A stretch of 32,000 bases of DNA from Cereibacter sphaeroides 2.4.1 (GCF_000012905.2 NC_007494.2:150001-182000); one strand, 5' to 3'; counted from the first letter of the stretch, positions 13,486 to 32,000 are shown. Translations and numbers: made by a program. Notes: generated by a model not told the origin, from the sequence alone.

Positions 13486-13486
13486 G

Positions 13487-13519: not shown

Positions 13520-13523
13520 TCCC

Positions 13524-14933: not shown

Positions 14934-14960
14934 CGCAGTCTCCTTTCGTGCCGTTGTCGG

Positions 14961-15980: not shown

Positions 15981-16002
15981 TCGAGCCTGTCGCGGAGGTG
16001 GA

Positions 16003-16452: not shown

Positions 16453-16534
16453 TTTACATGTCTCCATGGGTGCGATCGCGCGCGCGTCGCAGGGTATCGA
16501 GGGCACGGTGGGTGCCGATTGCGGTGAAAGGCGA

Positions 16535-16840
16535 TCAGGCGCGCGGTGGTCGTCGGTCCGGGGGGACCACCCTGCCTGCGGCGCTCGCCTCGCCCGCCGC
16601 AAGCCGCAGCGGCAGCTCGGGGCGGGTCGGCAGGGCAAGCGTCAAGCCTGTCGGCAGGACGCAGGTCATGCAGGGCTTTTCGGCGGGCGCCCGCGTCGGG
16701 ATCGCGGGTCCGGGCGCGGTGCAGACATCGTCCACGGCCTGCGTGCTGGGGCAACCCGAGGGCTTGCCGACCTGCACCGACGGCTGCATCGAAAAGAGCA
16801 GCATCGCGACGGTGAGGCAGATCGAGAGATACTTCAGCAT
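16535..16840 (-). CDS. hypothetical small exported protein with four mature-region Cys residues including CxxC
   Basis: 101 aa with a plausible Sec signal peptide (MLKYLSICLTVAMLLFSMQ). The mature part contains GCPS, DDVCT and a CMTC motif. Third-position G/C bias is strong on this strand. It sits directly upstream of DoxX in the same orientation. I recognise no family. Confidence 0.5.
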   Translation of the reverse strand: MLKYLSICLTVAMLLFSMQPSVQVGKPSGCPSTQAVDDVCTAPGPAIPTRAPAEKPCMTCVLPTGLTLALPTRPELPLRLAAGEASAAGRVVPPDRRPPRA

Positions 16841-16958
16841 GCGGACCCGGAAATCTCTTTGCTTGTGCTTCGTTAGTCGTCTCAGGGCCGGAACCTCAAG
16901 CGCCCCGCGCCGGGACTGACGCAGATGTGAGGCCCCCAGCCGCCGCGGCCGAACGCGT

Positions 16959-17933: not shown

Positions 17934-17943
17934 GGGGCTTCTC

Positions 17944-18765
17944 CTATCGGGCGTGGAAGACGAAGGAGCGCATCGAGACCGAGGCGAGCTCGATGGCGTC
18001 CGTCATGAAGGTCAGTTCGTCGCGCTCGTCCGAGGCGCCGGCGATGGTGAGCGCCGGCATGTAGTGATCGACCGACGGATGCGCCATCGTCAGCAGCGAT
18101 CCCAGCCCCTTGCGGTCGGCGAGCGTGCGGAAGTCGCGCTCGGTCAGCCGGTCGGCGAAGAGGGCGTCGAATTCCAGCGCGAACCCATGTGGCTTGCTGC
18201 CCGCGCTCCAGTTCACCGCGCGCAGGTTGTGCACCACATTGCCGGACCCGAGGATCAGCACGCCGCGGTCGCGCAGCTCGGACAGTGTCCGCCCGATCTC
18301 GAGCTGGTGGTCGAGGTCGCGGGTCATGTCGATCGAGACCTGGAAGACCGGCACGTCGGCCTCGGGATAGAGGAACTTCAGCACCGTCCAGGCGCCGTGG
18401 TCGAGGCCCCAGCTGTCATCCTCGGCGGCGTGGTGGCTGGCCAGCAGCGAGGTCACTTCGCGCGCCAGCTGCGGCGCGCCCCGCGCGGGATAGCGTTGCG
18501 CATGAAGCGCCTCGGGGAAGTTGTAGAAATCGTGGATCGTCCGCGGCATGGCCGAGACATCGACCAGCGTCGTGCCCCGGGTCATCCAGTGCGCCGATAC
18601 GACGAGGATGGCGCGAGGCCGCGGCAGGCTCTCGCCGAGCCTTGTCCAGGCGCGGCTGTAGGCCGTGTCCTCGATGGCGTTCATCGGGCTACCGTGGCCA
18701 AGGAAGACCACAGGCATCCGGTCGGAGGGCGCGAGGCGCTCCTTCAGAGTGTCGAGCTTGTGCAT
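17944..18765 (-). CDS. ygiD: class III extradiol ring-cleavage dioxygenase (4,5-DOPA dioxygenase, YgiD family)
   Basis: MPVVFLGHGSPMNAIEDTAYSRAW, ILVVSAHW, YPARGAP, LDHGAWTVL, ILGSGNVVHNL and HPSVDHYMP are present. The stop is 10 nt before the yqjG start, so an operon is likely. An alternative GTG start is 18774. Confidence 0.85.
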   Translation of the reverse strand: MHKLDTLKERLAPSDRMPVVFLGHGSPMNAIEDTAYSRAWTRLGESLPRPRAILVVSAHWMTRGTTLVDVSAMPRTIHDFYNFPEALHAQRYPARGAPQLAREVTSLLASHHAAEDDSWGLDHGAWTVLKFLYPEADVPVFQVSIDMTRDLDHQLEIGRTLSELRDRGVLILGSGNVVHNLRAVNWSAGSKPHGFALEFDALFADRLTERDFRTLADRKGLGSLLTMAHPSVDHYMPALTIAGASDERDELTFMTDAIELASVSMRSFVFHAR

Positions 18766-18987
18766 GACAGACACGGGACTGTCCTTTCGGGGAGAGCCGG
18801 CGCAAGGCGGTGCCGGAGCGGAGGGGCGCCGGACAGGCGCGCGGGTTCGGGTCAGGCGATCTGCCATTTCGGCGCGAGGCCGGTGCCGAAGCCGTTTCCG
18901 ACGATCGCGAGCTTCATGGTCTGGCCCCTCGTTGCCGCACCTGCGGCGCTTCGGTTCGTTGCAGCCAAGATAGGCCTTGCTGCAGTT

Positions 18988-19009
18988 CAACAATATGGAG
19001 ATGTTGTTG
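18988..19009. promoter_or_regulatory. inverted repeat CAACAA-N10-TTGTTG in the divergent ygiD/LysR intergenic region (candidate LysR site)
   Basis: Read directly from the sequence. It is AT-rich and lies 33 nt upstream of the LysR-family gene start. Confidence 0.25.
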
Positions 19010-19041
19010 TATGACTATCCACTAAGCGTTCTGAATAATCC

Positions 19042-19938
19042 ATGGATCTGACCGATGAACTCCGGGCCTTCGTGGCCACGGCCAAGACCGGCTCCTTCAC
19101 GGCGGCGGCGGACCAACTCGGGGTGTCGAACCGGCTGACCTCAAAATATGTGGCCGAGCTGGAGAAGCGGCTCGGCGTCAGGCTGCTCCAGCGCACCACC
19201 CGCAAGGTCGGGCTCACTCCCTCAGGCGAGACCCTGCTGGCCCGGGCTCCGGCGCTGCTGGACGAACTCGACGACCTGCTGGTCGAGGTCTCGCACGGCT
19301 CGCGCGGCTTCACCGGCACGATCCGCGTCTCGGCCCCCGTGACGTTCGGCGAGGACTATGTCGGAGGGATGCTCGGCCGCTTCGCCGCGCTGCACCCGGG
19401 GCTGGTGGTCGACCTGAGGCTGAACGACAGCTTCGCCGACCTCGCGAGCGAGGGGATCGATGTGGCCTTCCGGGTCGGGCGATCCGAGACGCTGTCGCTG
19501 AAGACCCGGAAGCTGGGCGAGGTGCGCACCGTTCCGGCCGCCAGCCCCGGCTATATCGCGACCCGTGGCGCCCCCGACCGGCCCGAGGACCTCGTCCGGC
19601 ATGACTGCATCCTCGACACCAACCGCCGGGTGCCGCGCCGCTGGACGTTCCTCGAGGACGGGACCGAGCGCAGCGTCGAGATCCGGGGGCGGTTTCAGGT
19701 CAATTCCGCCCGTGCCGCGGCCGATCTCGCAATGGCGGGGCTGGGCATCTGCTATGCCCCGCGGTTCGCTCTGGCCGAGGCGCTTCGGTCCGGCCGGCTC
19801 GTCCCGGTGCTCGAGGCGTTCGGCGGCGCGGTCGTGCCGGTCAGCGCGGTCTATCTCGAAGGCCGCAGCCTGCCGCAGAAGGTCCGAGCGCTGATCGACT
19901 TCGCGCTCGAGGACATCCGGCAGTCCGGCGTGCTGTGA
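19042..19938 (+). CDS. LysR-family transcriptional regulator
   Basis: LRAFVATAKTGSFTAAADQLGVSNRLTSKYVAELEKRLGVRLLQRTTRKVGLTPSG is a canonical LysR helix-turn-helix. A LysR substrate-binding domain follows. Confidence 0.9.
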   Translation: MDLTDELRAFVATAKTGSFTAAADQLGVSNRLTSKYVAELEKRLGVRLLQRTTRKVGLTPSGETLLARAPALLDELDDLLVEVSHGSRGFTGTIRVSAPVTFGEDYVGGMLGRFAALHPGLVVDLRLNDSFADLASEGIDVAFRVGRSETLSLKTRKLGEVRTVPAASPGYIATRGAPDRPEDLVRHDCILDTNRRVPRRWTFLEDGTERSVEIRGRFQVNSARAAADLAMAGLGICYAPRFALAEALRSGRLVPVLEAFGGAVVPVSAVYLEGRSLPQKVRALIDFALEDIRQSGVL

Positions 19939-19991
19939 GGACTGGCGAGCTTCGGCTTGCACAGGCGCAACAGTTCGACTATGCATGAATA

Positions 19992-20324
19992 ATGGAAAAG
20001 ACTCACGCTCTGGGTGTCCTGTCTGCCCTTGCCCACGACATCCGGCTGGACGTGTTCCGCCTCCTCGTGCGCGCCGGTCCTGCGGGCATGGCGGCCGGAG
20101 AGATTGCGGCGGGCCTCGACATCCGAGCCAACACGCTGTCGAACAACCTCACCATCCTGACGGGAGCGGGCCTTGTGCGCTCCGAGCGCGAAGGCCGCTC
20201 GATCCGCTATTTCGCGCGGATGGAGACGATGCGGGGGCTGCTGGCCTTTCTCATGGAGGATTGCTGCGGCGGCCGTCCCGAGCTCTGTCAGCCGGTTCTC
20301 GACCGGATCGCCTGCGACTGCTGA
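19992..20324 (+). CDS. arsR: ArsR/SmtB-family arsenic-responsive repressor
   Basis: LSALAHDIRLDVFRLLVRAGPAGMAAGEIAAGLDIRANTLSNNLTILTGAGLVRSEREGRSIRY is a winged helix-turn-helix. The C-terminal Cys cluster is DCCGGRPELC...ACDC. It lies directly upstream of acr3-arsC. Confidence 0.85.
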   Translation: MEKTHALGVLSALAHDIRLDVFRLLVRAGPAGMAAGEIAAGLDIRANTLSNNLTILTGAGLVRSEREGRSIRYFARMETMRGLLAFLMEDCCGGRPELCQPVLDRIACDC

Positions 20325-20359
20325 GTGCACGCATAACCCTGCCCAGAGGCTGAACCAAG

Positions 20360-21412
20360 ATGACCGACCTGCCGCAGACCCAGATCAATCCCCTGGGCCC
20401 GTTCGAGCGCTGGCTGACCCTCTGGGTCGGGCTGGCCATGGTGGCGGGCCTCTCCCTGGGCGTGCTGGCTCCGGGTCTGGTGCAGGTCATCGCCACGGCC
20501 GAGATCGCCTCGATCAACCTCGTCGTCGCCGTGCTGATCTGGGCGATGGTCTATCCGATGATGGTCAACGTGGATTTCGCCGCCGTCGGGGGGGCTGTGC
20601 GGCAGCCGACAGGACTGCTCATCACGCTAGTCGTCAACTGGCTGGTCAAGCCCTTCACCATGGCTCTGCTGGCGGTCCTGTTCTTCGACCTTGTCTTCGC
20701 TCCCTGGATCGCCCCCGAGGATGCGCAGCAGTATATCGCCGGTCTGATCCTGCTGGGCGCCGCGCCCTGCACCGCGATGGTCTTCGTCTGGTCCCAACTG
20801 GTGCGCGGTGATGCGACCTACACGCTGGTGCAGGTGTCGGTAAACGACATGGTGATGGTCGTGGCCTTCGCCCCCATCGTGGCCCTGCTTCTCGGCGTGA
20901 CCGAGATCGTCGTGCCCTGGCAGACGCTGGTCCTGGCGACGATCCTCTATGTCGTCCTGCCGCTGGCGGCAGGGATGCTGACGCGCCGCAGTCTTGGCAC
21001 CCCCGCCCGGATCGAGGCGTTCTCGGCCCGCGTGAAGCCCTGGTCGATGATCGGCCTGATCGCGACGGTCGCGATCCTCTTCGGGCTGCAGGGGCAGACG
21101 ATCCTCGACCGGCCCGCGATCATTGCGCTGATCGCCGTGCCGATCCTGATCCAGAGCTATCTGATCTTTGCCGTGGGTTACGGCGCGGCCTGGCTGATGA
21201 GGGTGCCGCACCGGATCGCGGCGCCGTGCGCCATGATCGGCACCTCGAACTTCTTCGAACTGGCCGTCGCCGTCGCCATCAGTCTCTTCGGCCTCAATTC
21301 GGGCGCGGCGCTGGCAACGGTCGTGGGCGTTCTGGTCGAGGTGCCGGTGATGCTGTCCCTCGTGGCCTTCGCCAACCGCACCCGCGCCCGTTTCCCGGAG
21401 ATCCGCGCATGA
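20360..21412 (+). CDS. acr3: ACR3-family arsenite efflux permease
   Basis: FERWLTLWV..., [28 protein letters not shown] (the conserved ACR3 Cys motif) and [19 protein letters not shown] are all present. Confidence 0.9.
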
Positions 21413-21840
21413 TCGTCATCCACCACAACCCTGCCTGCGGCACGTCGCGCAACGTGCTGGAGATCATCCGCGCGTCCGGCGCCGAGCCGGTCATCATCGA
21501 CTATCTGGCCGAAGGCTGGACACGTCCGCAGCTGCTGGCTCTGCTGGCCGCGGCCGATCTGACGCCGCGTCAGGCGCTGCGGACGTCGAAGTCGCCCGCC
21601 GCCGAACTGGGCCTGTTGGAGGCTGGCGTCACCGACGGGCAGATCCTCGATGCAATGCTCGCCCATCCGGTGCTGGTCAACCGGCCCATCGTGGCCTCGC
21701 CCAGGGGCGTGCGGCTCTGTCGCCCGTCCGAGACCGTGCTGTCGCTTCTGGACCGCCTGCCGGTTGGGCCGCTCTACAAGGAGGACGGGCAGATGATCCT
21801 GAACGAGAGGGGCGAGATCGTCAGCGACCTGCCCACCTGA
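21409..21840 (+). CDS. arsC: glutaredoxin-dependent arsenate reductase (R773 ArsC type)
   Basis: [21 protein letters not shown]...[23 protein letters not shown] matches the E. coli/R773 ArsC catalytic Cys motif (NPACGTSRN) and the C-terminal motif. The ATGA start/stop overlap with acr3 indicates coupling. Confidence 0.9.
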
Positions 21841-22142
21841 ACCCCGACCGACCTGCGAGCATCGATCGGAGCGCCTCGCCCTCATGGTGATGCGCACCGG
21901 CACGTCGGCGAGGCAGGCCTGCAGGTCGAGGCCGCTCGGGTTTGCGCGCTCGGTCAGCGTCATGGCGCGGGCGAGAGTTTCGCCCCGGCGTCACTGCCGG
22001 AAAGGAGCGAGGTCTTCCACCCGATGCCGACGGGCCGCATGGCGCGCCCAGCGGGCGCTCGCCCTTGTCCTCGGACCCATGGCGGACATGTCACGCTGTC
22101 GATGGCCATGCCCAAGGGCGGAAGGATGATGGGCCCGGGCCT

Positions 22143-23090
22143 TCAGGGGCCGCGCAGGGAGAGGGGCGTGAGGATGCGCTCGAACTCGGCGAGCAGGGAC
22201 GCGCCGGCCGAAGCGGGCTCGGGATCCGGGACGTCGGAGGGCACGACACGGGTATGATCGTCGGTATTGCCCCTCTCTGCATCACTCAGGCGGGGATCGT
22301 CGGCGCCTGCGGTCTCGGGGAACAGGGGCGGCCGCACGCTCGCGACGGCTGGCGGCACGGGGTAGAGAAGCGGCTCTCCCCGGCCGGCCGAGATGCTGTT
22401 GGCCACCGTCCTCAGCACGTTGATCCGGTCGGCCGGTGCGGCGACCAGCACGCTCGACCACGCTCCGTCGCGGAGATCCGAGCGCAGGTAGAACACGCCC
22501 AGCCGAAAATCTCCGTCCCCGAAGATGGCGTGGAAGGGCGCGTAGGCCGACCAGACCCGCAGGCGGGACTTCGGCGCGGGGAAGTAGCTGTTCCTGTTCG
22601 GCAGGGCGTTGCGCCGGATGGTGTCTCCGACCGCCTCGGCCGCTACCACCGGCCCGCGCGCGGCATAGATCGCCACCTCGGGGGAGGCGTGGGTCTGCGT
22701 GAAGTTTGGCCCGATCGCTTCGCCGGTGGCGGAATCTCCAGGCACGAGCAGCGAGCCGTCCAGCGCCGGAAGATAGGCGACTTGCCAGCCCGAGGCCGCG
22801 AGCCGTTGGCCTGCGTCGGACAGGAAGCTCTCGACGTCGGAGGCGGTGAGGCGGCAGGGCGGGGCACAGCCGAGCGCCTGTTCGAGCGCGCGTCGGCTCA
22901 TCCCGCCCCACTCTCCGTCGAGCATGCCGTCATAGACGTCCGCAAACGACAGCGCGGCTTGGAGAAAGCGGATCTCGGCGTGCGAGAGGCGGGCGGGGTC
23001 GAAGGGCCGATCCTCCGCCTGCGCCTCCGGGGTCACAAGGAGAAGCGTCAACAGACAAGCGGCCAGCGATCTCATGCCAGGGCGTCTCAT
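22143..23090 (-). CDS. secreted hypothetical protein with an N-terminal peptidoglycan-binding-like (PG_binding_1) repeat
   Basis: The signal peptide is MRSLAACLLTLLLVTPEAQA. AEIRFLQAALSFADVYDGMLDGEWGGMSRRALEQ fits the PG_binding_1 pattern (LQ..L...G.Y.G..DG..G..T..A...FQ). I do not recognise the remaining ~230 aa. An alternative start is ATG 23075. Confidence 0.7.
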   Translation of the reverse strand: MRRPGMRSLAACLLTLLLVTPEAQAEDRPFDPARLSHAEIRFLQAALSFADVYDGMLDGEWGGMSRRALEQALGCAPPCRLTASDVESFLSDAGQRLAASGWQVAYLPALDGSLLVPGDSATGEAIGPNFTQTHASPEVAIYAARGPVVAAEAVGDTIRRNALPNRNSYFPAPKSRLRVWSAYAPFHAIFGDGDFRLGVFYLRSDLRDGAWSSVLVAAPADRINVLRTVANSISAGRGEPLLYPVPPAVASVRPPLFPETAGADDPRLSDAERGNTDDHTRVVPSDVPDPEPASAGASLLAEFERILTPLSLRGP

Positions 23091-23340
23091 TTCCCGATCA
23101 CCAGATCGAGCATGGCCGTCCGCGCGTCGGCGCTCCAGCGGCAGTCGATCCGCGCCTGTCCCGCCGATCGCGAAAGGCCGCCCTTGCGTGCGCAGGTCAG
23201 CACGAGGTGCGGCGCGACGCCGGCCGCCGCGGCTGCGTTGGCGCAGCTTCGGATGCCCGCCTCGAGGCTGGCGGAGTTCAGCGTAAGCCGGCCGCCATGC
23301 GGGGCAGGGCGCGAACGCTACGCTGACGCCGCCGCGCAGG

Positions 23341-23679
23341 ATGGCGGTGGCCGCAGGGGCGGGGGCCGTGCTCGCGCTGGCGGGACTGGCGGTCTATGCC
23401 GGGATGGGCGGCTTCTCCGACCCGCCGGCCCCGCAGACGTCCGAGCCGCCGCCCGGTGCCGCCGAGATGCGTGCCATTCCGGCCCCTGCCGAGGAGGCGC
23501 CCGCCGCGAAGCCGGAGGGTGCCGATCCTCAACCCTCCGAGGGAGGCCACGCAGAGCCGGAGGCGCAGCCCCGGAAGGCTGCTGCACCGGAGGCCAGCCC
23601 GGCACCTGCACGACGACCCGCAGCCCGCGAGGGGCATCCGTCCAGGGACAACGCTCCGGCCAGAGCGGACGAGATCTGA
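23341..23679 (+). CDS. small single-pass membrane protein with a Pro/Ala/Glu-rich tail (first ORF of the kinase operon)
   Basis: 112 aa. The N-terminal hydrophobic helix AVAAGAGAVLALAGLAVYAG is followed by a low-complexity P/A/E-rich region. The stop overlaps the kinase start (TGATG at 23677-23681). An in-frame stop at 23284 limits upstream extension. The RBS is weak and the composition low-complexity, hence moderate confidence. Confidence 0.45.
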   Translation: MAVAAGAGAVLALAGLAVYAGMGGFSDPPAPQTSEPPPGAAEMRAIPAPAEEAPAAKPEGADPQPSEGGHAEPEAQPRKAAAPEASPAPARRPAAREGHPSRDNAPARADEI

Positions 23680-24800
23680 TGACCGAGCCGCGCCTTCCCA
23701 ACGGCACGCGCATCGCCGGCCATGTCATCACGGACCAGATCGGCCGGGGCGGGTTCGGGATCACCTACCGGGCGAACGTGCTCGAGACCGGCGCCACCGT
23801 CGCGCTGAAGGAATACTTCCCCTGCGACATGGCCCATCGCGATGCGCAGGGCTTCGTCCGCCCGCTGCCCAGGGCCGAGCGGATGTACGAGGAGGGTCTG
23901 CGGGCCTTCATCACCGAGGCGAACATCCTGAAGGCGCTGCCGCAGCAGGCCGGTCTGGTGCGGGTGCGCGGCGCCTTCGAGAAGTTCGGCACCGCCTATT
24001 GCGCGATGGATTTCATCGAGGGCGAGCCGCTCAGCCGTCTCGCGCAGGCCACGCTCCAGCGCACCGGCTTCATCGCCGAGGATCTGCTGCGCAGCTTCCT
24101 CGCCCCGATCTGCCTCGCGCTCGAGACGGTTCATTCGACGAACCTCGTCCACCGCGATGTGAAGCCCGCCAACATCATGATCTCGCGCCGCGACCAGCAG
24201 CCGATCCTGATCGACTTCGGCGCCGCGCGCCCCTCGGGGCAGCGCGGGTCGCTCGCGATGTTCACCCGCAGCTACGCCCCGGTCGAGCTGTTCCCCCGCG
24301 CGCAGGTGCGTTCGGCGCAGCCCTTGGAGGAGGGGCCGTGGAGCGACATCTATTCGCTGTCCGTCATGCTCTACGAGATGGCGACGCGGCAGCTGCCCCC
24401 CAGCGCGCCCGACCGGGCGGCGGCGGTCGCCGCGGGGGCGCCCGACCCTTACGTCCCGCTGACGGCGCTTCTTGCGCAGCGGCGGCTGCGCGGCAGCTAC
24501 TCGCCCGCCTTCGCCTCGGCGGTCGATGCCGGCTGCGCGCTCTGGCCCGAGGCGCGGCCGCGGACGGTACGCCAGTTCGCCTACATGGCCGGCGTCGAGA
24601 TGGGGTCCGCTCCGCCGCCGACGCCGCGCCGAACCGTCACCGGGGCCGCTCCCTCGCCCTCCTCGTCGGTTCCGCGCAGCCAGCGACGCCCCGTGAACCG
24701 CCAGTCCATCGCCATGGTGCTCCTGATGCTGCTGATCGCGGGGGCGGCGGTGTCCTATGGCGTCGTCTCGCGCCAGCCCGACTGGGTGGCCTACCGATGA
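23679..24800 (+). CDS. Hanks-type Ser/Thr protein kinase 1, C-terminally membrane-anchored
   Basis: Kinase motifs present: G-loop IGRGGFGITY, VALKEY Lys, catalytic loop HRDVKPANIM (24150-24173), DFG (LIDFGAAR), SYAPVE, and WSDIYSLSVMLYEM. The C-terminal TM is SIAMVLLMLLIAGAAVSYGVV, with only about 10 residues beyond it. The ORF-track start 21942 is a spurious 579-codon extension. Confidence 0.9.
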   Translation: MTEPRLPNGTRIAGHVITDQIGRGGFGITYRANVLETGATVALKEYFPCDMAHRDAQGFVRPLPRAERMYEEGLRAFITEANILKALPQQAGLVRVRGAFEKFGTAYCAMDFIEGEPLSRLAQATLQRTGFIAEDLLRSFLAPICLALETVHSTNLVHRDVKPANIMISRRDQQPILIDFGAARPSGQRGSLAMFTRSYAPVELFPRAQVRSAQPLEEGPWSDIYSLSVMLYEMATRQLPPSAPDRAAAVAAGAPDPYVPLTALLAQRRLRGSYSPAFASAVDAGCALWPEARPRTVRQFAYMAGVEMGSAPPPTPRRTVTGAAPSPSSSVPRSQRRPVNRQSIAMVLLMLLIAGAAVSYGVVSRQPDWVAYR

Positions 24801-26011
24801 TGAGACTTCTCTGCGCGCTTGTCGGATTGCTCTGGGCCGCGGCCGCCGCGGCACAGGATTTCAGCGCCGTCGCCCGGCTGACCGACGCCTCGGTGGGCCG
24901 GATCTTCGTGGACCTTCCTCGCGGAATGAGGACCGGCGCCGGCATGGTCTTCGGCCAGGGCGCCGGGGGCAGGCTGCTGTACCTGACCAATTTCCATGTT
25001 GTTCAGAACGGCGGCGACATTGCCGTCTTCTTCAAGAACGGCGATGCGATCTCGATCTACAGCGGCACGGTCCTTGCCGTCTCGCAGGAGAAGGACCTGG
25101 CGGCGCTGAGCCTCGACCCCGAGGAGATCGGCACGCCCTCGCCCCCGCCTCTCGCCATCGACACGCGACGGCTCGCGAAAGGCGAGGCCGTGGTGGCCAT
25201 CGGCTATCCCGCCGCGGCCGACGCCACCATGGGGCGCGACATGAACATCGCCGCCTTCGAGACCACGCTGACCGGCGGCAGCGTCAGCCGCGTGCTGAAC
25301 GGCTCCTGGCGCGGGGCCTCGGCCGAGCTTGAGATCGTCCAGCACACCGCGCCGCTCAGCCCCGGCAATTCCGGCGGACCGCTGCTCGACCGGTGCGGGC
25401 GGGTGATCGGGGTGAACACGATGATTGCGACGGACGCGGCCGGGATCTACCTCGCCGCCTCGGCCGGCACCATCGCGGACTTTCTGGCCGAGGCCGGGCT
25501 TCCGATGCAGACGGCCGGCGGCAGTTGCGGCGGAGAGCCGGCCTCTCCGGCTGCGGCGCCACCGGCTGCCACGGTGACGGACGGCCGGGTGCCGATCTGG
25601 ATGATCCTCGGCGGAACCGGCGCCGCGCTGGCTTTGGTCATGGCCGCGATGGCGGTTGCGGCCGGCGGCCGGGGTGGCGAGCCCGCGGCGCCCCGGGTCG
25701 CGCTGACGCTGACCATCGCCACGGGCGGATCGCGCCAGCGGTGCGGCATCGGACGGGCGAGCCTGCAACGCGGCGTCATCCTCGGACGCGGCGGCGCGGC
25801 CGAGGTGGCGATCGACAGCCCGCGCGTCAGCCGCGAGCATCTGCGGCTGACGCTCGAGGGGCGGCGGCTGATGGCGACGGACCTCGGTTCGACCAACGGG
25901 ACGATGGTCGACGGCAGGCCGCTGCCGCCGAACCAGCCGCGGCAGGTGGGCGAGGCCACGGTTCTGGTGCTGGGCGGCGAGGTCGAGATCCGGCTGAGGG
26001 CGGGGTCATGA
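24797..26011 (+). CDS. trypsin-like (S1/HtrA-type fold) serine protease domain - TM helix - FHA domain fusion protein
   Basis: The signal peptide is MMRLLCALVGLLWAAAAAAQD. Catalytic triad candidates are His67 (TNFHVV), Asp100 (EKDLAAL) and Ser192 (GNSGGPLLD). The TM helix is residues 266-290 (VPIWMILGGTGAALALVMAAMAVAAG). The FHA hallmarks are ILGRG...VSREH...DLGSTNGTMVDG. The ATGA overlap with the kinase 1 stop indicates coupling. Confidence 0.85.
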   Translation: MMRLLCALVGLLWAAAAAAQDFSAVARLTDASVGRIFVDLPRGMRTGAGMVFGQGAGGRLLYLTNFHVVQNGGDIAVFFKNGDAISIYSGTVLAVSQEKDLAALSLDPEEIGTPSPPPLAIDTRRLAKGEAVVAIGYPAAADATMGRDMNIAAFETTLTGGSVSRVLNGSWRGASAELEIVQHTAPLSPGNSGGPLLDRCGRVIGVNTMIATDAAGIYLAASAGTIADFLAEAGLPMQTAGGSCGGEPASPAAAPPAATVTDGRVPIWMILGGTGAALALVMAAMAVAAGGRGGEPAAPRVALTLTIATGGSRQRCGIGRASLQRGVILGRGGAAEVAIDSPRVSREHLRLTLEGRRLMATDLGSTNGTMVDGRPLPPNQPRQVGEATVLVLGGEVEIRLRAGS

Positions 26012-26727
26012 AGGATCTGGCGCCCCCCGATCTGGCGGCATCGGACGCGGTCGCCGACATCCGCGATCTTTCGGTCCGGCTGGGAGAGCGGTTCGAGGTG
26101 ACGATCGAGCGGCTCTCGGTCGCCCCCGGCGAGGTTCTGGTGCTGGATGCGCCCAGCGGCAGCGGCAAGAGCACGGTGCTCGGGCTGGTCGCGGGGGCGG
26201 TTGCGCCTCAGGCGCGGCCGGTGCGGCATCGGGTGGCGGGGCACGATCTGGCCGTGGCGTCGCGCCCGCCGGGGCCGGCGGCGGTGGGCTTCGTGCTCCA
26301 GACACATGCGCTGGTGCCCTATCTGACCATGGGCGACAACATCGGTCTGCCGTCGCGCATCGCGCGGCTGCGGGTGGCGCCGGACTGGGCACGAGAGGTG
26401 GTGGTCTCGCTCGGCCTTGTCGATCTGATGGACCGCTTTCCGGCGCAGCTATCGGTGGGCCAGCGCCAGCGCGCGGCCGTGGCGCGCGCGATGCTCGCGC
26501 GGCCGCGGCTGCTGCTGCTGGACGAGCCGGTCTCGGCCCTCGACCCCGCCAATGTCCGCGCAGTGGAGGAGCTGATCCTGCGCCTTGCCGGGGAGGCGGG
26601 CTCGGCCGTGCTGCTCGCGGGCCACCAGATCGCGGGAAGCGCCTTTGCCGCCTGCCGCCGCGTGCGACATCGGGTGGAGGTTGCGGGCGCAGTGACGCGC
26701 TCGGTCTTCCGGTCGGAGGCGGTCTGA
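26008..26727 (+). CDS. ABC transporter ATP-binding protein (LolD/MacB/TagT-like)
   Basis: Motifs present: Walker A APSGSGKST, Q-loop FVLQTHALVPYLT, signature LSVGQRQR (a G-to-V variant of LSGGQ), Walker B LLLLDEP, D-loop SALD and H-loop AGHQ. It overlaps the previous stop by ATGA. GAGGG lies about 9 nt upstream. Confidence 0.85.
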   Translation: MKDLAPPDLAASDAVADIRDLSVRLGERFEVTIERLSVAPGEVLVLDAPSGSGKSTVLGLVAGAVAPQARPVRHRVAGHDLAVASRPPGPAAVGFVLQTHALVPYLTMGDNIGLPSRIARLRVAPDWAREVVVSLGLVDLMDRFPAQLSVGQRQRAAVARAMLARPRLLLLDEPVSALDPANVRAVEELILRLAGEAGSAVLLAGHQIAGSAFAACRRVRHRVEVAGAVTRSVFRSEAV

Positions 26728-27917
26728 TGCCGCTGCCCCTCGTTCTGGCGCTGCGCGAGCTGCGGCACGACTGGATCTCGGCGCTCTGCTTCGTGGCGGC
26801 GCTGGTGGGCGTGCTGGCGCCCATGCTGATCCTGCTCGCGCTGAAGACGGGTGCGCTCGACACGATGGTCGAGCGGCTGGTCGACGATCCGGCGAACCGC
26901 GAACTGCTGGCGGTGGGGGCCGGCGCGTATGACGAGGGCTTCTTCCGCTGGCTGGAGGCGCGGCCCGAGGCGGGGTTCGTCGTCCCCGCCACGCGCAGCA
27001 TCAACGCCCTTGCGGATGCGGTCGTGGCCTCCGCTCCCCGCCGCGAGATGGTGCGGGAGGTGCCGCTGGTGGTTTCGGCCGCGGGCGATCCGCTGCTGGC
27101 GGGGGAGGTAGGGCCGGGCCGGGTCTGGCTGAGCGCGCAGCTTGCGAAGTCGCTGGGGGTGGCGCCCGACGCGGTGCTGACGATGGTGATCGGACGGCGC
27201 ATCGACGGCCTCGAGCAGACGGCGCGGCGACCGCTGAAGGTGGCGGGGATCGTTCCGGCCGAGCGCTACGGTCGCTCGGCGCTGTTCCTCTCGCTGCCGG
27301 ACATGCTGGCGATCGAGCGGTTCCGCGACGATCCCGCCGTCACGCCCGAAAGCTGGCTGGAGATTGCCGCGCCGCCTGCGGCCTTTGCCAGCTTCCGCCT
27401 CTATGCGCGGACTCTCGCGGATCTCGGGCCGCTCTCGGCGGCGCTGGAGGGGCGCGGTGTTGCGGTGCGCCCCCGCGCCGAGAATGCGGCGCTGTTGCTG
27501 CAGCTGCGGCGGGGCGCGGATCGTCTGTATCTTGCGGTCGCCGCATTGGCCGCCGCCGGATTCTGGGCCGCGATGAGCGCCAATCTCCGCGGCATGGTGG
27601 AGCGGCGGAGGCTGGCCTTCAGCCTGCTGCGGATGCTGGGCCTGACGCCCGTCCAGCGCGCGACGGTTCCGCTGATCCAGAGCCTCGTGCTGATCGGGAC
27701 CGGGCTCGGGCTCTCGCTTGCCCTCGTTCTGCCGGCGCTGGCGCTGATCAACGCGAGCTTTCCCTCCGTGACCGAAGGGGCGGCGCTCGCGCGCCTCAGG
27801 CCGGACCAGTTGGGGGGGGCGGCTGCGCTTGCCTGCGTGACGGCGCTGACCGCGGCGCTCTGGGCGATGGCGGCGGTGCTGCGGATCCCGAGCGAGGAGG
27901 TGTTGCGTCATGGCTAG
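26727..27917 (+). CDS. FtsX-like ABC transporter permease (MacB/LolCE/TagS-type: TM1, large periplasmic domain, three C-terminal TMs)
   Basis: The N-terminal LALRELRHDW plus TM1 is typical of the FtsX family. A roughly 215-aa extracytoplasmic region follows. The C-terminal three-TM FtsX module includes ...RRRLAFSLLRMLGLTPVQ.... A GGAGG RBS is present. TGATG overlaps the ATPase stop. Confidence 0.8.
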   Translation: MPLPLVLALRELRHDWISALCFVAALVGVLAPMLILLALKTGALDTMVERLVDDPANRELLAVGAGAYDEGFFRWLEARPEAGFVVPATRSINALADAVVASAPRREMVREVPLVVSAAGDPLLAGEVGPGRVWLSAQLAKSLGVAPDAVLTMVIGRRIDGLEQTARRPLKVAGIVPAERYGRSALFLSLPDMLAIERFRDDPAVTPESWLEIAAPPAAFASFRLYARTLADLGPLSAALEGRGVAVRPRAENAALLLQLRRGADRLYLAVAALAAAGFWAAMSANLRGMVERRRLAFSLLRMLGLTPVQRATVPLIQSLVLIGTGLGLSLALVLPALALINASFPSVTEGAALARLRPDQLGGAAALACVTALTAALWAMAAVLRIPSEEVLRHG

Positions 27918-29526
27918 GGCATGGGGTCTTGCGCTGGCGATCCTCTTGGCCGCGCCGCCCGCCGCGGCGGGCGGGATCACGGTGGACGAGACATACTGGA
28001 ACCCGCAGCCGGCCGAGGGCGACCTCGTGCTGCCGATGCCCTGCGGCGGCGCGATGGCATTCCGCCCGGTGGCGACACCCAATGCCGACGGTGCGGTGGG
28101 CGACGTTCCGGTCATCCTCGGTCGCGAGGACGAGGACCAGCCCTATCTGGACGGCACGCGGCGCTCCTATGTCTCGGGAGGGTTTCCGGGGACGGGCGAG
28201 GCGGAAGCCAAAGCCATGTTTTACATGGCGAAATACGAGATCGCCGAGGCGCAGTACCGTGCGGTGACGGAAGGCTGCCCGCAGAAGGAGCCGCGCCGGC
28301 GCGACTTCCTGCCGGTAACGGGCGTGACGAAGACCGAGCTTGACGCCTTCGCGCAGGCCTTGACGGTCTGGCTGATGCGGAACGCGCCGGAAAGCGTCGC
28401 CCTCGCCGGTGCGGCGCCGGCCCATCTGCGGCTTCCGACCGAGGAGGAGTGGGAGTTCGCCGCCCGGGGCGGTCTTGCCGTCGATCCGGCGCTGTTCCGC
28501 GGCGCGCTGCCGCCGATCCCGCCCGGTCACGCGGCATCGGAATACATCGCGCATGGCGGCAACGACAGCGCGGGCGGCAAGGTGCAGGCGATCGGAACGC
28601 TGGCGCCGAACCCGCTCGGGCTGCACGACATGCTGGGCAACGTCTCGGAATATGTGCTCACCCCCTTCGCGATGGTGCGCCACGGGCGGCTGCACGGTCA
28701 GGCCGGCGGCTACGTCAAGCGCGGCGGCGATGCGCGCACGCCGCTCGAGCAGATCACCAGCGCAACCCGGTTCGAGGTGCCTCCCTTCGACGCGCATTCG
28801 AAGGATGTGACGCGCGAGGCTTTCACCGGGGGGCGGCTCGTGCTGTCCGCGCTTTCGATCACCTCGGCCGAGCAGGCGAAGGCGGTCGCGGCGGCGCTCG
28901 AGACCCTGTCGCGGGCCGACCCTGCGCTCGACTCGGCGGCCTCGGAGGCCGAGGTTCTGGCGCTGCTCGACCGGCTTCAGCGCGAGGCCGGCGATGCCGC
29001 CGACCGCAGCCGCTTTGCCACCATCGCCCGGACGATCCGCGAGGCCCGCGCCGAGACGAATGCGCAGCGCGACCGGACCATCCGGATGATCCTCGGCTCG
29101 TCGGTGCTGACCTGCGACCAGATCGTGCAGCGCTACCTGAACGCGCTTGCCATCGCGGCGCTGGTGCCGAGCTACGACGGGCTGGCCGCCGAGGCCGAGG
29201 CGAGCGGCGACACCGCACTGGCGCAGGAGGTGGCCGAGGCCCGGGCCGAGGCCGAGACGAAGCTGCGCGAGATGGAGGAAGCGGTCGGCCGCGAAAGCGT
29301 CGACTATGCCAACCTGATCGAGGGCCTTTCGGCCGAATTCTCGCAGGAGCTGCTGGCGGCGCAGATCGCGGCCGTGCGGGACGAGCACGAGAGCCGCGGC
29401 CCTCGGCGCGGCGCCTGCCTCGGCGCGGTGCAGGCCCATCTCGACCGGCGGGCCCGGAGCGGGATGAACGACCTCGCCGCCATCCGGTCCGACATGCAAC
29501 AGATCGCGGCCGCGCAGGCCCGCTAA
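27910..29526 (+). CDS. secreted FGE-sulfatase (SUMF1/TagR-like) domain protein with a long Ala/Glu-rich helical C-terminal region
   Basis: The signal peptide is MARAWGLALAILLAAPPAAAGG. FGE-family motifs are RLPTEEEWEFAARGG (28429-28473), NPLGLHDMLGNVSEYV and VKRGG. The roughly 220-aa C-terminal part is coiled-coil-like. It overlaps the permease gene by 8 nt. A GAGGAGG RBS is present. Confidence 0.85.
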   Translation: MARAWGLALAILLAAPPAAAGGITVDETYWNPQPAEGDLVLPMPCGGAMAFRPVATPNADGAVGDVPVILGREDEDQPYLDGTRRSYVSGGFPGTGEAEAKAMFYMAKYEIAEAQYRAVTEGCPQKEPRRRDFLPVTGVTKTELDAFAQALTVWLMRNAPESVALAGAAPAHLRLPTEEEWEFAARGGLAVDPALFRGALPPIPPGHAASEYIAHGGNDSAGGKVQAIGTLAPNPLGLHDMLGNVSEYVLTPFAMVRHGRLHGQAGGYVKRGGDARTPLEQITSATRFEVPPFDAHSKDVTREAFTGGRLVLSALSITSAEQAKAVAAALETLSRADPALDSAASEAEVLALLDRLQREAGDAADRSRFATIARTIREARAETNAQRDRTIRMILGSSVLTCDQIVQRYLNALAIAALVPSYDGLAAEAEASGDTALAQEVAEARAEAETKLREMEEAVGRESVDYANLIEGLSAEFSQELLAAQIAAVRDEHESRGPRRGACLGAVQAHLDRRARSGMNDLAAIRSDMQQIAAAQAR

Positions 29527-29544
29527 CCTGAAGGAGCACCCCCC

Positions 29545-29808
29545 ATGCGGGATTTTCTGAACAAGTCGCTCGCCGTCCTGATCTGGATCGCCACCGGCTT
29601 CAACGTCGCCCTGTCCTGCTACACCGGCGCGATGATCATCCGCTATTCGCCGATGCAGCTGATGGGTGACAGCACGGTGATCCTCTACGGCTTCCTGTTC
29701 ATCCTTTTCGGGGTGACGCTGTCTCTGGTCTTCGCAGGCATCTGCTTCCAGATCATGGACATCCGCACCTTCACCAAGCATGTCGCGCTGAACCAGCGCC
29801 GAGTGTGA
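29545..29808 (+). CDS. small two-TM membrane protein, no recognised family
   Basis: 87 aa with two hydrophobic helices: SLAVLIWIATGFNVALSCYTGAMII and VILYGFLFILFGVTLSLVFAGICF. A strong GAAGGAG RBS lies 8 nt upstream. It sits between the FGE and kinase 2 genes with 18-nt and 7-nt gaps. Confidence 0.6.
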   Translation: MRDFLNKSLAVLIWIATGFNVALSCYTGAMIIRYSPMQLMGDSTVILYGFLFILFGVTLSLVFAGICFQIMDIRTFTKHVALNQRRV

Positions 29809-29815
29809 CGGCGGG

Positions 29816-31099
29816 GTGACGGCGATGGCGAGCGAACTCCAGCCCGGCGACGTGATCCAGGACACCTACCGCGTCGAGGCGCGGCTGGGGCAGGGCGGCA
29901 TGGGCACGACCTGGCGCGGCGTGAACCTCACGACGCAGGACGTGGTGGCGATCAAGGTGATGACGCCCGAGATCGCGCTGGTGCCCAAGGCGGTCGAGCT
30001 GTTCCGCCGCGAGGCGCAGCTCTTGCGCAAGGTCCAGAGCGACGCGGTGATCCGCTACGAGACCACGCTTCAGGACCGCGAGGGACGGCTGTACCTGATC
30101 ATGGAGTTCGTCGACGGCCAGCCGCTGTCGCATTACCTCGAGCGCGGGGCGCGGCTCGCGCCCGGCGACGTGCTGCGGCTGGGGCGGCGGATGGCGGGGG
30201 CGCTGGCGGCGATCCACGCGCTCGGCATCGTGCACCGCGACGTGGCGCCCGACAACATCATGCTGCCCGACGGCGACATCGGCCATTGCAAGCTGATCGA
30301 CTTCGGGCTCGCCTCGAACACCTCGGGGACCGAGGCCTCGATCATCGGGGCGAGCTATGCCGGGAAGTACTCCTATTCCTCGCCCGAGCAGTTCGGGCTG
30401 CACGGGGCGCGGGTGGGGCCGGCCTCCGACATCTACTCGCTGGGCCTTGTGCTGATGAAGGTCTGCGGGCTGAAGGTGCCGGGCGAGGGGATGGGCATGG
30501 CCGCGGTCGAGGTGCGGCGGGAGAACGTGACGATCCCGCGGGATGCGGGCCTGCCTCCGGCGCTGGCGCGGCTGCTCGAAGCGATGCTGCGCACCCGGCC
30601 CGACGAACGCCCCGCCGATCTGCAGAAGCTGTTCGCCGAGGCGGCGCCGGGGCTGGAACGGGCGGCGCCGGCCCGCACGCCCCGCCGATCGGGTCTGGCG
30701 CTTGCGGCCGGTGCGGGCGTTCTGGCCGCCGCGGGGGCGGGCCTGTGGTTCGCCCTGCCGTATCTCGACACGCCCCCGGGCAGCCGCGTGGTCACCGATG
30801 CCCGCGCGGTTGTGGCCGCCCATGATCCGCTTGCTGAAATCGAAAGCCGCTTCGCCGCGGGCGATGTCGAGACGGCCTTCGCAAGCCTGATGGCGCTGGC
30901 GAACGATCAGGCCGGCCCGCCCGAGACCCGGAGGCAAGCCTATTTTGCGCTGGGGCGGATGTACGATCCGGCCAGTTTCAACGCCAGCCGCAGCCCGTTC
31001 AAGGCGCCCAATGCCTCGGCCGCGCGGCGGAACTATCAGGCGGCTGCGGACCTCGGCTCGGCCGAGGCGCGGCAAGCCCTTGTCCTGCTGAGAGAATGA
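29816..31099 (+). CDS. Hanks-type Ser/Thr protein kinase 2 - TM - periplasmic Sel1/TPR-like repeat domain
   Basis: Kinase motifs present: G-loop LGQGGMGTTW, VAIKVM Lys, catalytic loop HRDVAPDNIM (30233-30256), DFG (LIDFGLA), YSSPEQ and ASDIYSLGLVLM. The TM is GLALAAGAGVLAAAGAGLWFAL. The C-terminal AYFALGRMYDP...ARRNYQAAADLGSAEARQAL is Sel1-like. The start is GTG 29816 or ATG 29825. Confidence 0.9.
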   Translation: MTAMASELQPGDVIQDTYRVEARLGQGGMGTTWRGVNLTTQDVVAIKVMTPEIALVPKAVELFRREAQLLRKVQSDAVIRYETTLQDREGRLYLIMEFVDGQPLSHYLERGARLAPGDVLRLGRRMAGALAAIHALGIVHRDVAPDNIMLPDGDIGHCKLIDFGLASNTSGTEASIIGASYAGKYSYSSPEQFGLHGARVGPASDIYSLGLVLMKVCGLKVPGEGMGMAAVEVRRENVTIPRDAGLPPALARLLEAMLRTRPDERPADLQKLFAEAAPGLERAAPARTPRRSGLALAAGAGVLAAAGAGLWFALPYLDTPPGSRVVTDARAVVAAHDPLAEIESRFAAGDVETAFASLMALANDQAGPPETRRQAYFALGRMYDPASFNASRSPFKAPNASAARRNYQAAADLGSAEARQALVLLRE

Positions 31100-32000
31100 C
31101 GATGCTGCGCCTGCTGGTCCTGGTTCTGAGCCTCGCCGCCACCGCCCTTTGGGCCGGGGATGTCCGTCCGCTGGTCATGGAGGGCAAGTCCGCCCTGCCG
31201 CAGCGCGTTCTGGTGCGCGAGGCGGGCGAGCGTCTGGAGACGCCCGGCGGCCGGTCTCTGGGGCCGGTCGTGCCGCTGCAGCAGTTCTACGTCTATGCGC
31301 GTCAGGACGGCTGGGTGAAGGTCGGGCCGGGGCAGGATGGGAGCGATCTGGGCTGGCTGCCGGCCCAAGAGGTGGCCGACTGGAACCAGAACATCGTGGC
31401 CACGCTGGAGGTGACGGCGGGGCTGGAACGCACGCTGTTCTTTTCCGACTTTGATGCCGCCTATGAGGTGGTCGAGGCCGAGGACCCGGGCCGCGACGCG
31501 GCCGCGCTGCGCGCCGAGGCCGAGGCGGCCGAGCAGAGCGGGGCGCCCTCCGACCGCATCGTTGCGCTGGGGCCGCGCGAGGCGATCGACCAGCGGCAGC
31601 GGCTGCACGTCCTGCCGATCCTCTCGGCCGAGGAGGCGCTGTTCGAAAGCGGCGCCTTCGTGAACCTGCTGAAGGTGGCGGTGGCGCGCGCGCAGGCGCC
31701 GTCGGAGGCCGCGCAACCCATCGGCCAGCCGATGCGCGCGGGCATCGTCTTCGTCGTCGACACCACGCATTCCATGGCGCCGTACATCAGCGCCACCCGC
31801 GATGCGCTGCGCGAGGTCTATGGCGAGGTGGCGGCCGCGGGTCTGAGCGACCGGGTGTCCTTCGGTCTGGTGGGCTATCGCGACAGCCTGAAGGGCCAGC
31901 CGGCACTGGACTATGCTGCGCGCACCTTCGTCACCCTCGAGGAGGGGCGGACGGCCGAGGGCTTCCTCGCCGGGATCGCGCAGATGTCCGAGGCGACAGC
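31096..32000 (+). CDS. secreted von Willebrand factor A (vWA) domain protein, N-terminal part (runs off the right window edge)
   Basis: Absent from the ORF track because it is open to the window edge; I translated it by hand. The signal peptide is MTMLRLLVLVLSLAATALWAG. A possible SH3b-like segment is FYVYARQDGWVKVGPGQDGSDLGWLPAQEV. The vWA beta1/MIDAS region is AGIVFVVDTTHSMAPYI (31759-31773), followed by RVSFGLVGYRD. ATGA overlaps the kinase 2 stop. Confidence 0.8.
   Translation, partial: MTMLRLLVLVLSLAATALWAGDVRPLVMEGKSALPQRVLVREAGERLETPGGRSLGPVVPLQQFYVYARQDGWVKVGPGQDGSDLGWLPAQEVADWNQNIVATLEVTAGLERTLFFSDFDAAYEVVEAEDPGRDAAALRAEAEAAEQSGAPSDRIVALGPREAIDQRQRLHVLPILSAEEALFESGAFVNLLKVAVARAQAPSEAAQPIGQPMRAGIVFVVDTTHSMAPYISATRDALREVYGEVAAAGLSDRVSFGLVGYRDSLKGQPALDYAARTFVTLEEGRTAEGFLAGIAQMSEAT

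Follow-up and report, generated by a model that had tools for sequence, protein, structure and literature searches.

Why does an operon on a bacterial chromosome carry the parts of the threonine-phosphorylation (TPP) pathway of type VI secretion systems (T6SSs) when no T6SS gene stands beside it? We addressed this question for a stretch of 32,000 nucleotides from Cereibacter sphaeroides 2.4.1 (GCF_000012905.2 NC_007494.2:150001-182000; hereafter the window), in which a run of same-strand open reading frames (ORFs) at 23341-32000 encodes two Hanks-type kinases, a protease fused to an FHA domain, an ABC ATPase with its permease, and secreted FGE- and vWA-domain proteins. The answer that we favour, with a probability of about 60%, is that a 13-gene system for Ser/Thr phospho-signalling across the envelope, built from two modules, is present here as a copy truncated at its 5' end. 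The full form of this system occurs in close relatives within Cereibacter, on metagenome contigs and in Tabrizicola and Litoreibacter, and the vWA protein that marks it is widespread in the Rhodobacteraceae.

The window is identical in sequence to chromosome II of C. sphaeroides (a replicon of ~943 kb; for example CP015211.1, 164.7-185.9 kb) and has a G+C content of ~70%. An earlier interpretation made from the DNA alone (the sequence-only reading) had proposed nine same-strand ORFs with coupled junctions, and these were borne out, with every junction exact: TGATG at 23677-81 (ORF1/ORF2), ATGA at 24797-800 (ORF2/ORF3) and at 26008-11 (ORF3/ORF4), TGATG at 26725-29 (ORF4/ORF5), an 8-nt overlap, ATGGCTAG, at 27910-17 (ORF5/ORF6), gaps of 18 nt between ORF6 and ORF7 and of 7 nt between ORF7 and ORF8, and ATGA at 31096-99 (ORF8/ORF9). 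Gene callers choose the ATG at 29825 as the start of ORF8, with which the second gap becomes 16 nt. The operon had been thought to hold at least nine genes; the nine ORFs are there, but no tenth gene follows and the first ORF is only a gene relic. Beyond position 32,000, where we used the sequence of contig L001, which is identical to the window across their overlap, the operon ends after the vWA gene (ORF9) and the next gene is convergent. The features are as follows.

22143..23090, minus strand: divergent conserved neighbour of 310-315 aa, no Pfam family
23087..23296, minus strand: relic of a DUF4431-family gene, its 3' end of ~70 codons, cut by the deletion (blastn against L093)
23292..23296, no strand: deletion junction, at which two blastn segments abut against both L093 and L094
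23341..23679, plus strand: ORF1, remnant of a PP2C gene (BLASTP and frame check)
23679..24800, plus strand: ORF2, kinase 1, a Hanks-type Ser/Thr kinase with a C-terminal transmembrane anchor (Pkinase 1e-29)
24797..26011, plus strand: ORF3, signal peptide, HtrA-like S1C protease, transmembrane helix and FHA domain (Trypsin_2 1e-24, FHA 5e-14)
26008..26727, plus strand: ORF4, ABC ATPase, TagT-like (ABC_tran 2e-22)
26727..27917, plus strand: ORF5, permease with four transmembrane helices, TagS-like, of FtsX/LolC/MacB topology (by topology and homology)
27910..29526, plus strand: ORF6, secreted FGE-sulfatase-domain protein, TagR-like (PF03781 1e-24)
29545..29808, plus strand: ORF7, 87-aa protein with two transmembrane helices (by conservation and predicted topology)
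29816..31099, alternative start ATG 29825, plus strand: ORF8, kinase 2, putative kinase half of a split PpkA (Pkinase 1e-39)
31096..32000, full gene to ~32991, plus strand: ORF9, secreted vWA protein, its 5' half (631 aa from L001)

The kinship with T6SS-associated TPP modules is one of true homology. A tblastn search of plasmids with ORF9 returned 126 records, and on plasmid pTM1 of Tistrella mobilis the ORF9 homologue lies inside a complete T6SS cluster, in the order tssF-G-H, tagH, tssJ-K, dotU, tssM, tagF, PP2C, a 475-aa kinase, a 658-aa vWA protein, an ABC ATPase, an FtsX-like permease, an FGE/SUMF1 protein, a 170-aa protein and vgrG. Identity to the pTM1 proteins is 36% for kinase 2 (residues 11-420), 35% for the vWA protein (full length), 37% for the FGE protein (residues 1-497), 41% for the ABC ATPase and 33% for the permease; with 33-41% over near full length, the earlier view that TagR/S/T-PpkA parts are present holds. 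The vWA domain had rightly been seen as a separate protein, an arrangement likewise found in the Tistrella cluster, and fused forms exist: a phmmer search of 1.84 billion representative proteins gave 1,099 relatives of ORF9, mostly stand-alone proteins of ~650 aa, together with two of 995 and 1,028 aa in which an N-terminal Pkinase domain precedes ~620 C-terminal residues that match ORF9. Because of the adjacent Ser/Thr kinase and vWA homologues in Tistrella and these fusions, kinase 2 and ORF9 are, as judged from their relatives, a split PpkA. Orthologues of ORF9 occur in Ruegeria, Roseovarius, Leisingera and other Rhodobacteraceae, and many carry the label 'PpkA' in JGI annotation.

What the locus has lost is seen by comparison with nine related loci: L005 and L006 (metagenomes), L007 and L008 (a second type, in assemblies labelled C. 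sphaeroides), L009 (Tabrizicola), L093 (C. johrii), L094 (C. azotoformans), L095 (Litoreibacter) and L097, a 98%-identical relative of the window. All share one gene order with the window, at 36-98% identity, so that the gene set is co-conserved, and all have 13 genes, five of which stand at the 5' end and are absent from the window. These five encode a glycine-zipper lipoprotein, a second coiled-coil lipoprotein, a vWA-transmembrane-FHA protein, a small FHA protein and a transmembrane-anchored PP2C. As a separate observation, the permease ORF of L094 (CP031751.1, 11943-13133) ends early, at codon 370 where 396 would be expected, and at ~16310-18200 of that locus an intact vWA ORF of >500 aa is missing, through either true damage or sequencing error.

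By blastn, window 22116-23296 corresponds to L093 2229-3409 and window 23292-32000 to L093 8508-17195, both at ~93% identity, with ~5.1 kb of the C. johrii sequence (L093 3410-8507) missing in between and the flanks overlapping by 4-5 bp at the junction. The alignment to L097 begins exactly at window position 23292. The deletion took two-thirds of the divergent DUF4431 gene (in L093 at 3200-4108, minus strand), the region between the divergent gene sets, in which the native promoters presumably lay, four upstream genes, and PP2C codons 1 to ~247. ORF1, which had been interpreted as a small transmembrane protein in its own right, is rather the in-frame 3' remnant of this deleted PP2C gene: it starts in frame at PP2C codon 264 (frame check against L093 7768-8886) and matches residues 271-330 of the L007 PP2C (BLASTP, 48% identity, E 1e-9), that is, a transmembrane helix and a Pro/Ala-rich tail only. 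A PP2C catalytic domain found no match in the window, and the gene is intact in nine of nine undeleted related loci. The absence of a PP2C phosphatase noted earlier is thus real for the catalytic domain, but it is the outcome of a recent 5.1-kb deletion and not a feature of the system's design.

L097 is 98.0% identical to the window over 8.7 kb without a gap and still has the complete gene set, so the deletion is recent and lineage-specific. The deleted arrangement is found in all 24 of the 24 contigs that we read with the window's exact ORF3 protein, three complete genomes among them. The eight remaining ORFs are intact, their dN/dS ratios against C. johrii are 0.12-0.31 for every gene, which indicates purifying selection, and the window and C. 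johrii lie about equally far from the L007 outgroup. C. johrii served as outgroup to polarise the 165 codon differences between the window and L097, 27 of which stayed unassigned: the window branch had 49 synonymous and 15 non-synonymous changes and the intact L097 branch 57 and 17 (Fisher p = 1). There is no sign of relaxed selection on the remaining genes. Split or missing calls for several operon genes in the complete genomes of L003 (CP047032.1) and L004 (CP047038.1) were considered as signs of decay and rejected; unrelated flanking genes (LysR, SBF, GST) are broken there too, which points to assembly indels.

These data bear directly on the first alternative, that the locus is a non-functional remnant whose eight remaining genes are too young to have decayed. 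We consider this unlikely, though it has points in its favour: the whole intergenic region between the divergent gene sets is gone, along with five and a half genes, among them those for the phosphatase, the lipoproteins and two FHA partners; the intact state of so close a relative as L097 makes the event recent; and a scan for promoters and terminators found nothing above shuffle background, no promoter-like site included. Against it, the eight ORFs are not only intact but keep their coupled junctions, the ratio of synonymous to non-synonymous changes matches that of the intact sister branch, and the deleted allele is carried by every one of the contigs read. Under the truncated-system reading, the window copy may, with its native upstream region gone, not be expressed at all; if expressed, it should be mis-regulated or signal-blind without PP2C and TagQ-like lipoproteins. 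It would thus be either mis-regulated, with neither a phosphatase nor TagQ-like input, or decaying into a relic.

The same deletion also touched the divergent gene at 22143-23090, from which it removed the upstream partner (the DUF4431 gene) and the shared upstream region. In C. johrii and C. azotoformans a homologue of this gene precedes the system in divergent orientation, and L007 has a more distant one in the same place (tblastn, 29% identity to a 256-aa gene); at the nucleotide level the window gene is 93% identical to L093 2229-3409.

A second alternative starts from the T6SS itself. The sequence-only reading had seen no T6SS genes nearby, and this is confirmed: no homologue of TssG, TssH, TssJ, TssK, TssL, TssM, TagF, TagH or VgrG was found in the window, in the 4 kb 3' of the operon or in 11 related loci. 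The T6SS of this strain, to judge by its RSP_3xxx numbering, is presumably on the same replicon, probably hundreds of kb away. Its tssB, tssC and clpV are RSP_3477, RSP_3478 and RSP_3474 (R. sphaeroides 2.4.1; PMC4239648), strain WS8N has a T6SS-type Fha (PMC3953482), and a 2026 review lists TagR/S/T for 'Rhodobacter' without stating their location (PMC13584744). The operon could then be a second, unlinked TPP module that controls the T6SS of the same genome in trans, a displaced accessory of the conventional kind, and the homology of five of its proteins to a T6SS-embedded cassette fits with this, as does a search with the Tistrella vWA protein, which found no T6SS-linked paralogue in Cereibacter. 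We nevertheless regard trans control as quite improbable, given that no T6SS gene lies within 10 kb of the system in any of the nine related loci, that the system has FHA proteins, a PP2C and a second kinase of its own, and that the same cassette serves a non-T6SS partner, srfABC, on plasmids.

The individual proteins are consistent with a system that spans the envelope. In the predicted topology the periplasm holds the protease and the FGE and vWA proteins, and the cytoplasm both kinase domains and the FHA domain; catalytic motifs are undamaged in both kinases, the ATPase and the protease. Profile searches upheld most of the domain list drawn up earlier, with two Pkinase domains, Trypsin_2 plus FHA, ABC_tran and FGE-sulfatase recovered and FtsX and VWA below threshold in Pfam. 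The Sel1 repeats proposed for ORF8 were not recovered; Pfam shows only a sub-threshold HEAT_2 match (9e-6) on its 107-aa periplasmic tail, which appears to be a helical repeat. Kinase 1 (ORF2) has the motifs GRGGFG, VALK, HRDVKPAN and DFG, a transmembrane helix at 344-362 and a tail of ~11 aa, and kinase 2 (ORF8) has one transmembrane helix (291-309) followed by the periplasmic helical tail of about 107-110 aa. In ORF3 a transmembrane helix at 269-287 separates the periplasmic protease from the cytoplasmic FHA domain (predicted topology). Among 13 orthologues the triad residues H67 (TNFHV) and S192 (GNSGGP) are invariant and D100 (DLA) is at least 90% conserved, and the FHA residues R331, S345, H348 and N367 are invariant too; the best matches in the PDB are HhoA/HtrA1 for the protease and the Rv0020c FHA domain. 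The FHA domain of ORF3 is 34% identical to Tistrella TagH over ~63 residues only and has no NCBIfam TagH match.

The ATPase (ORF4) carries LSVGQ, LLLLDEP and the Walker A lysine. For its partner permease (ORF5) the Pfam FtsX match is below threshold (E 0.003) and a comparison with PDB sequences gave no match; the FtsX-type assignment holds because of its topology, with predicted transmembrane helices at 19-37, 267-285, 320-338 and 367-385 and a periplasmic loop of ~230 aa, and its 33% identity to an annotated FtsX-like permease. ORF6 has a predicted signal peptide and, beyond the FGE domain, a helical C-terminal extension of ~240 aa, and its nearest NCBIfam and PDB matches are PorK/GldK and SUMF2. 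It has no Cys between residues 124 and 401, and its Pfam match ends at profile position 236 of 255. The active-site Cys pair of FGE follows the RGG motif, and by this placement the pair is absent from ORF6; because of this, the protein is probably non-catalytic, with a domain that binds rather than an enzyme. ORF7 is 55-92% identical across the seven related loci compared, a gene of 87-94 aa stands at the same place in all nine, and it has no match in Pfam, NCBIfam or PADLOC. Full-length ORF9 likewise stays below the Pfam threshold for VWA (E 0.006), but the central domain of its AlphaFold model (pLDDT 86, pTM 0.85) is matched by integrin I-domains (target-normalised TM-scores 0.74-0.78), which confirms the vWA call. 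In the fold search with this model only the central vWA domain was matched, the N-terminal beta-rich and C-terminal helical regions being without a solved counterpart.

How could such parts work together? The full system would consist of two modules. Module B would be a sensor of the T6SS-type TPP kind, comprising the TagT-like ATPase, the TagS-like permease, the TagR-like FGE protein, the 87-aa protein with two transmembrane helices and the split PpkA, and in the full form also the two coiled-coil lipoproteins, one of them of glycine-zipper type. Module A would comprise the vWA-transmembrane-FHA protein, the soluble FHA protein, the transmembrane-anchored PP2C, kinase 1 and the protease-transmembrane-FHA protein. 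This division is suggested by the occurrence of module A without module B in Thiorhodovibrio and of module B with srfABC on three plasmids. By analogy with the pathway of Pseudomonas (described in PMC13584744), the type-VII ABC pair, together with the FGE and vWA proteins, would detect a disturbance of the periplasm. Autophosphorylation on threonine of kinase 2, and possibly of kinase 1 as well, would follow, and the FHA domain of the protease protein would dock on the kinase phosphothreonines; the protease would thereby be gathered or activated where the damage lies, on the periplasmic side of the membrane, and the PP2C would reset the system. Phospho-dependent periplasmic proteolysis would be the simplest output because the only FHA reader left in the window is the one fused to the protease. 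In its most specific form, which we put forward tentatively as a possible rather than a probable extension, the 13-gene system would be a self-contained envelope-damage response in which a T6SS-type TagRST/PpkA sensor controls an HtrA-like protease of the periplasm 'inside-out', with cytoplasmic phosphothreonines recruiting the FHA anchor of the protease and so positioning or activating proteolysis on the other side of the membrane.

Several points weigh against this account. The homology, domain content, topology, synteny, deletion and absence of linked T6SS genes come from the data, but the protease as output, the docking of FHA on the phosphorylated kinase and the nature of the signal are elements that we infer. 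The tie to TagR/S/T/PpkA of Pseudomonas aeruginosa runs through the Tistrella cluster, PGAP/JGI annotation and the literature and not through direct alignment. The T6SS elsewhere in R. sphaeroides 2.4.1 (PMC4239648) makes cross-talk possible. The substitution test cannot place the deletion on its branch, so that intact ORFs may mean merely that the loss is recent, and with the native intergenic region lost in the deletion, the remaining genes may not be transcribed.

The sensor cassette is by no means confined to this setting. Homologues of ORF9 were found by tblastn on 114 Klebsiella plasmids, mostly non-mobilizable. On the one inspected (L089, K. pneumoniae NZ_CP029739.1, IncFIB/IncU), positions 5116-21971 hold a cluster of 12 genes in the order two lipoproteins, a TerD-like transmembrane protein, SrfA, SrfB, SrfC, a 339-aa transmembrane protein, vWA protein, ABC ATPase, permease, FGE protein and a 167-aa protein. 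The cassette proteins of the window and of this plasmid (vWA, ABC, permease, FGE) are 30-35% identical, the ABC ATPase 34%. By eye, the C-terminal tail of the 339-aa protein resembles the periplasmic tail of kinase 2, and no kinase domain was recognised in it. On a C. azotoformans plasmid and a Hyphomicrobiales plasmid the cassette is linked to srfB and srfC and a trypsin-like protease is near. In the former (L091, plasmid p1, 5610-23408), a peptidoglycan-binding protein and a 628-aa serine protease precede the srfB/srfC-linked cassette. Neither the window nor any of 11 related loci gave a match in a tblastn search with Klebsiella SrfA, SrfB and SrfC.

The claim that the operon matches no described system could therefore not be upheld, since TagQRST/PpkA-like genes beside srfABC and unlinked to a T6SS are published. 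Campbell et al. (2013, PMC3608642) reported tagQ/R/S/T and ppkA beside srfABC in host-associated Deltaproteobacteria that lack a T6SS, and a 2026 preprint describes a Lol-like ABC/vWA/SUMF1 cassette that flanks srfABC (bioRxiv 10.64898/2026.09.18.752743). According to the literature the srfABC-linked cassette is also present in Haemophilus, Xenorhabdus and host-associated Desulfovibrionaceae. The 13-gene architecture itself was not described for Rhodobacter or Cereibacter in the literature searched, and Boyer et al. (2009) make no mention of it.

Other loci combine the modules differently. A TARA contig (L096, Albimonas-like, 1-16910) has Ser/Thr kinase, vWA, ABC, permease and FGE genes facing divergent PP2C, FHA and vWA-FHA-like genes, with a 1,345-aa AAA_22/TPR (STAND-like) protein in the divergent set and neither a protease-FHA nor a T6SS gene. 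In Thiorhodovibrio frisius (L098, CP121471.1, 1-12579), vWA-FHA, PP2C, an unclassified Hanks kinase with a protease-FHA gene next to it, and FHA proteins occur without the ABC/FGE cassette; this module is seemingly interrupted by genes for an SMC-like ATPase, an AlbA_2/HATPase_c_4 protein and a TacA-like antitoxin, and a MotA/ExbB gene follows. In Hyphomicrobium (L010) the protease-FHA gene adjoins a kinase 1-like kinase. Because the back-translated GNSGGPL motif is generic to HtrA proteases, scanning genomes with the protease-FHA alignment does not reveal how the gene is truly distributed; among the matches listed, the two full-length relatives are from Tabrizicola and Hyphomicrobium.

Two further alternatives fare worse. 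One is a system of defence against phages that relies on Ser/Thr kinases, in favour of which it may be said that both kinases match the PADLOC kinase models mad6 and PD-T4-6 and that the ABC ATPase matches mad3. The PADLOC matches are limited to generic kinase, trypsin and ABC domains, with no system-specific partner, and on that check the defence reading was rejected; moreover, the neighbours are arsenic-resistance and metabolic genes and not a defence island, and the components are mostly periplasmic or membrane-anchored, so that a defence role is very improbable. Just as implausible is a Lol/MacB-like export or protein-modification pathway in which an FGE enzyme modifies a periplasmic client handled by the ABC transporter: for the homologous cassette the 2026 preprint does propose that FGE modifies SrfA-C and that the permease is LolF-like, but ORF6, without Cys at 124-401 and with a Pfam match that stops at 236/255, would lack the Cys pair that follows the RGG motif in FGE, and no sulfatase or obvious client is encoded at the locus. 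Outside these readings, the vWA-MoxR/ternary conflict systems of Kaur et al. (2020, PMC7159879) were also considered and rejected; the nine ORFs hold no MoxR AAA+ and no STAND NTPase/VMAP, and the contexts of FGS and vWA in that study differ from the operon here.

The surroundings of the operon are of another kind. On the 5' side lie a chemoreceptor gene and genes for GST, oxidoreductases, LigB and LysR, followed by an arsR-acr3-arsC set. The chemoreceptor (3120-5354, minus strand) is a 744-aa methyl-accepting chemotaxis protein (MCPsignal 1e-31, 4HB_MCP_1), and a long ORF on the opposite strand (2724-4940) belongs to no family and is probably spurious. The arsenic-resistance set (19992-21840, plus strand) consists of an arsR-like HTH_20 gene, an Acr3/SBF permease and ArsC, and stands directly upstream of the divergent 310-315-aa gene. 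On the 3' side, the convergent neighbour of ORF9 (L001 18627-20990, minus strand) encodes a 787-aa protein with an Sde182 nucleoside-hydrolase-like domain, HpiC1-like/DUF642 modules and a CBM60 carbohydrate-binding module.

What does the locus tell us about TPP sensing in general? Both the signal read by TagQRST and the relay from the ABC pair to PpkA are unresolved and have been studied only in the Pseudomonas H1-T6SS (2026 review, PMC13584744). Judged by homology, the sensor cassette is portable: it accompanies a T6SS in Tistrella, SrfABC on one Klebsiella plasmid and two alphaproteobacterial plasmids, and kinases, FHA proteins, PP2C and protease in the Rhodobacteraceae. This portability, together with the vWA protein of the cassette on 114 Klebsiella plasmids, favours a sensor of general use in the envelope over an accessory of the T6SS. 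Contexts without a linked T6SS are open for study of the TPP sensor, and the link to SrfABC may help to explain the long-unknown function of the srfABC operon. Were the tentative extension to a self-contained envelope-damage response true, the TPP sensor would have a T6SS-independent output, and the common C. sphaeroides lineage would be a natural phosphatase-less and TagQ-less mutant of that pathway in a genetically tractable model organism. In the protease anchored by its FHA domain, cytoplasmic phosphorylation would control a periplasmic enzyme, which is unusual. The natural 5.1-kb deletion and the 98%-identical intact strains offer a ready comparison in a model phototroph.

Compared with known systems, the parts are familiar and their assembly differs. 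ORF3 shares with HtrA/DegP (S1C) proteases the His-Asp-Ser triad in a trypsin fold, but where these have one or more C-terminal PDZ domains, ORF3 has no PDZ match and instead a transmembrane helix and an FHA domain. ORF5 resembles the type VII ABC mechanotransmitters (FtsEX, LolCDE, MacB) in its four transmembrane helices, large periplasmic loop and cytoplasmic ATPase partner, although it has no sequence match to a solved structure and its FtsX Pfam score is sub-threshold. Module A follows the same logic as the vWA-Ser/Thr kinase-FHA-PP2C operons of Deinococcus (DRA0331-0334) and the actinobacterial FhaA-FhaB-PstP...PknA-PknB cluster, with two FHA proteins followed by a transmembrane-anchored PP2C and then a kinase, and with a vWA domain in the set; the likeness is one of organisation, and these systems have neither an FGE/ABC sensor cassette nor a protease-FHA fusion. 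The 'TerY-P triad', said to come from work by Anantharaman and colleagues in 2012, is reportedly also of the vWA-Ser/Thr kinase-FHA-PP2C type.

Closest in its list of parts is the TPP pathway of the P. aeruginosa H1-T6SS (TagQRST-PpkA-PppA-Fha1). A periplasmic FGE protein (TagR), an ABC ATPase with an FtsX/LolC-type permease (TagT/TagS) and PpkA, in split form, all have counterparts in the window; of the PP2C (PppA) only the non-catalytic C-terminal tail is left, as ORF1, and a TagQ lipoprotein is absent from the window operon, lipoproteins being encoded only in the undeleted relatives. TagQ is reported to resemble the glycine-zipper type, and the glycine-zipper lipoprotein of the relatives gives sub-threshold Rick_17kDa_Anti/Gly-zipper matches. 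The PP2C, FHA reader and glycine-zipper lipoprotein classes are complete only in those relatives. Unlike the Pseudomonas pathway, the system here has no linked T6SS gene, PpkA in two genes, a second kinase, and an FHA domain that a transmembrane helix links to an HtrA-like protease in the periplasm; the full form adds a like fusion of FHA to a periplasmic vWA domain. Tistrella pTM1 has the same split kinase/vWA pair and ABC-permease-FGE trio, in the order kinase-vWA-T-S-R as against T-S-R-p87-kinase-vWA here, but its cassette sits in a full T6SS cluster with TagH and TagF and is accompanied by neither a protease-FHA nor a kinase 1. The srfABC-linked cassette is, like the one here, unlinked to a T6SS (PMC3608642) and has the same four genes at 30-35% identity in a different order, with two coiled-coil lipoproteins at its 5' end as in the full Rhodobacteraceae form; its partners are SrfA, SrfB and SrfC, whereas in the Rhodobacteraceae they are Hanks kinases, FHA proteins and PP2C.

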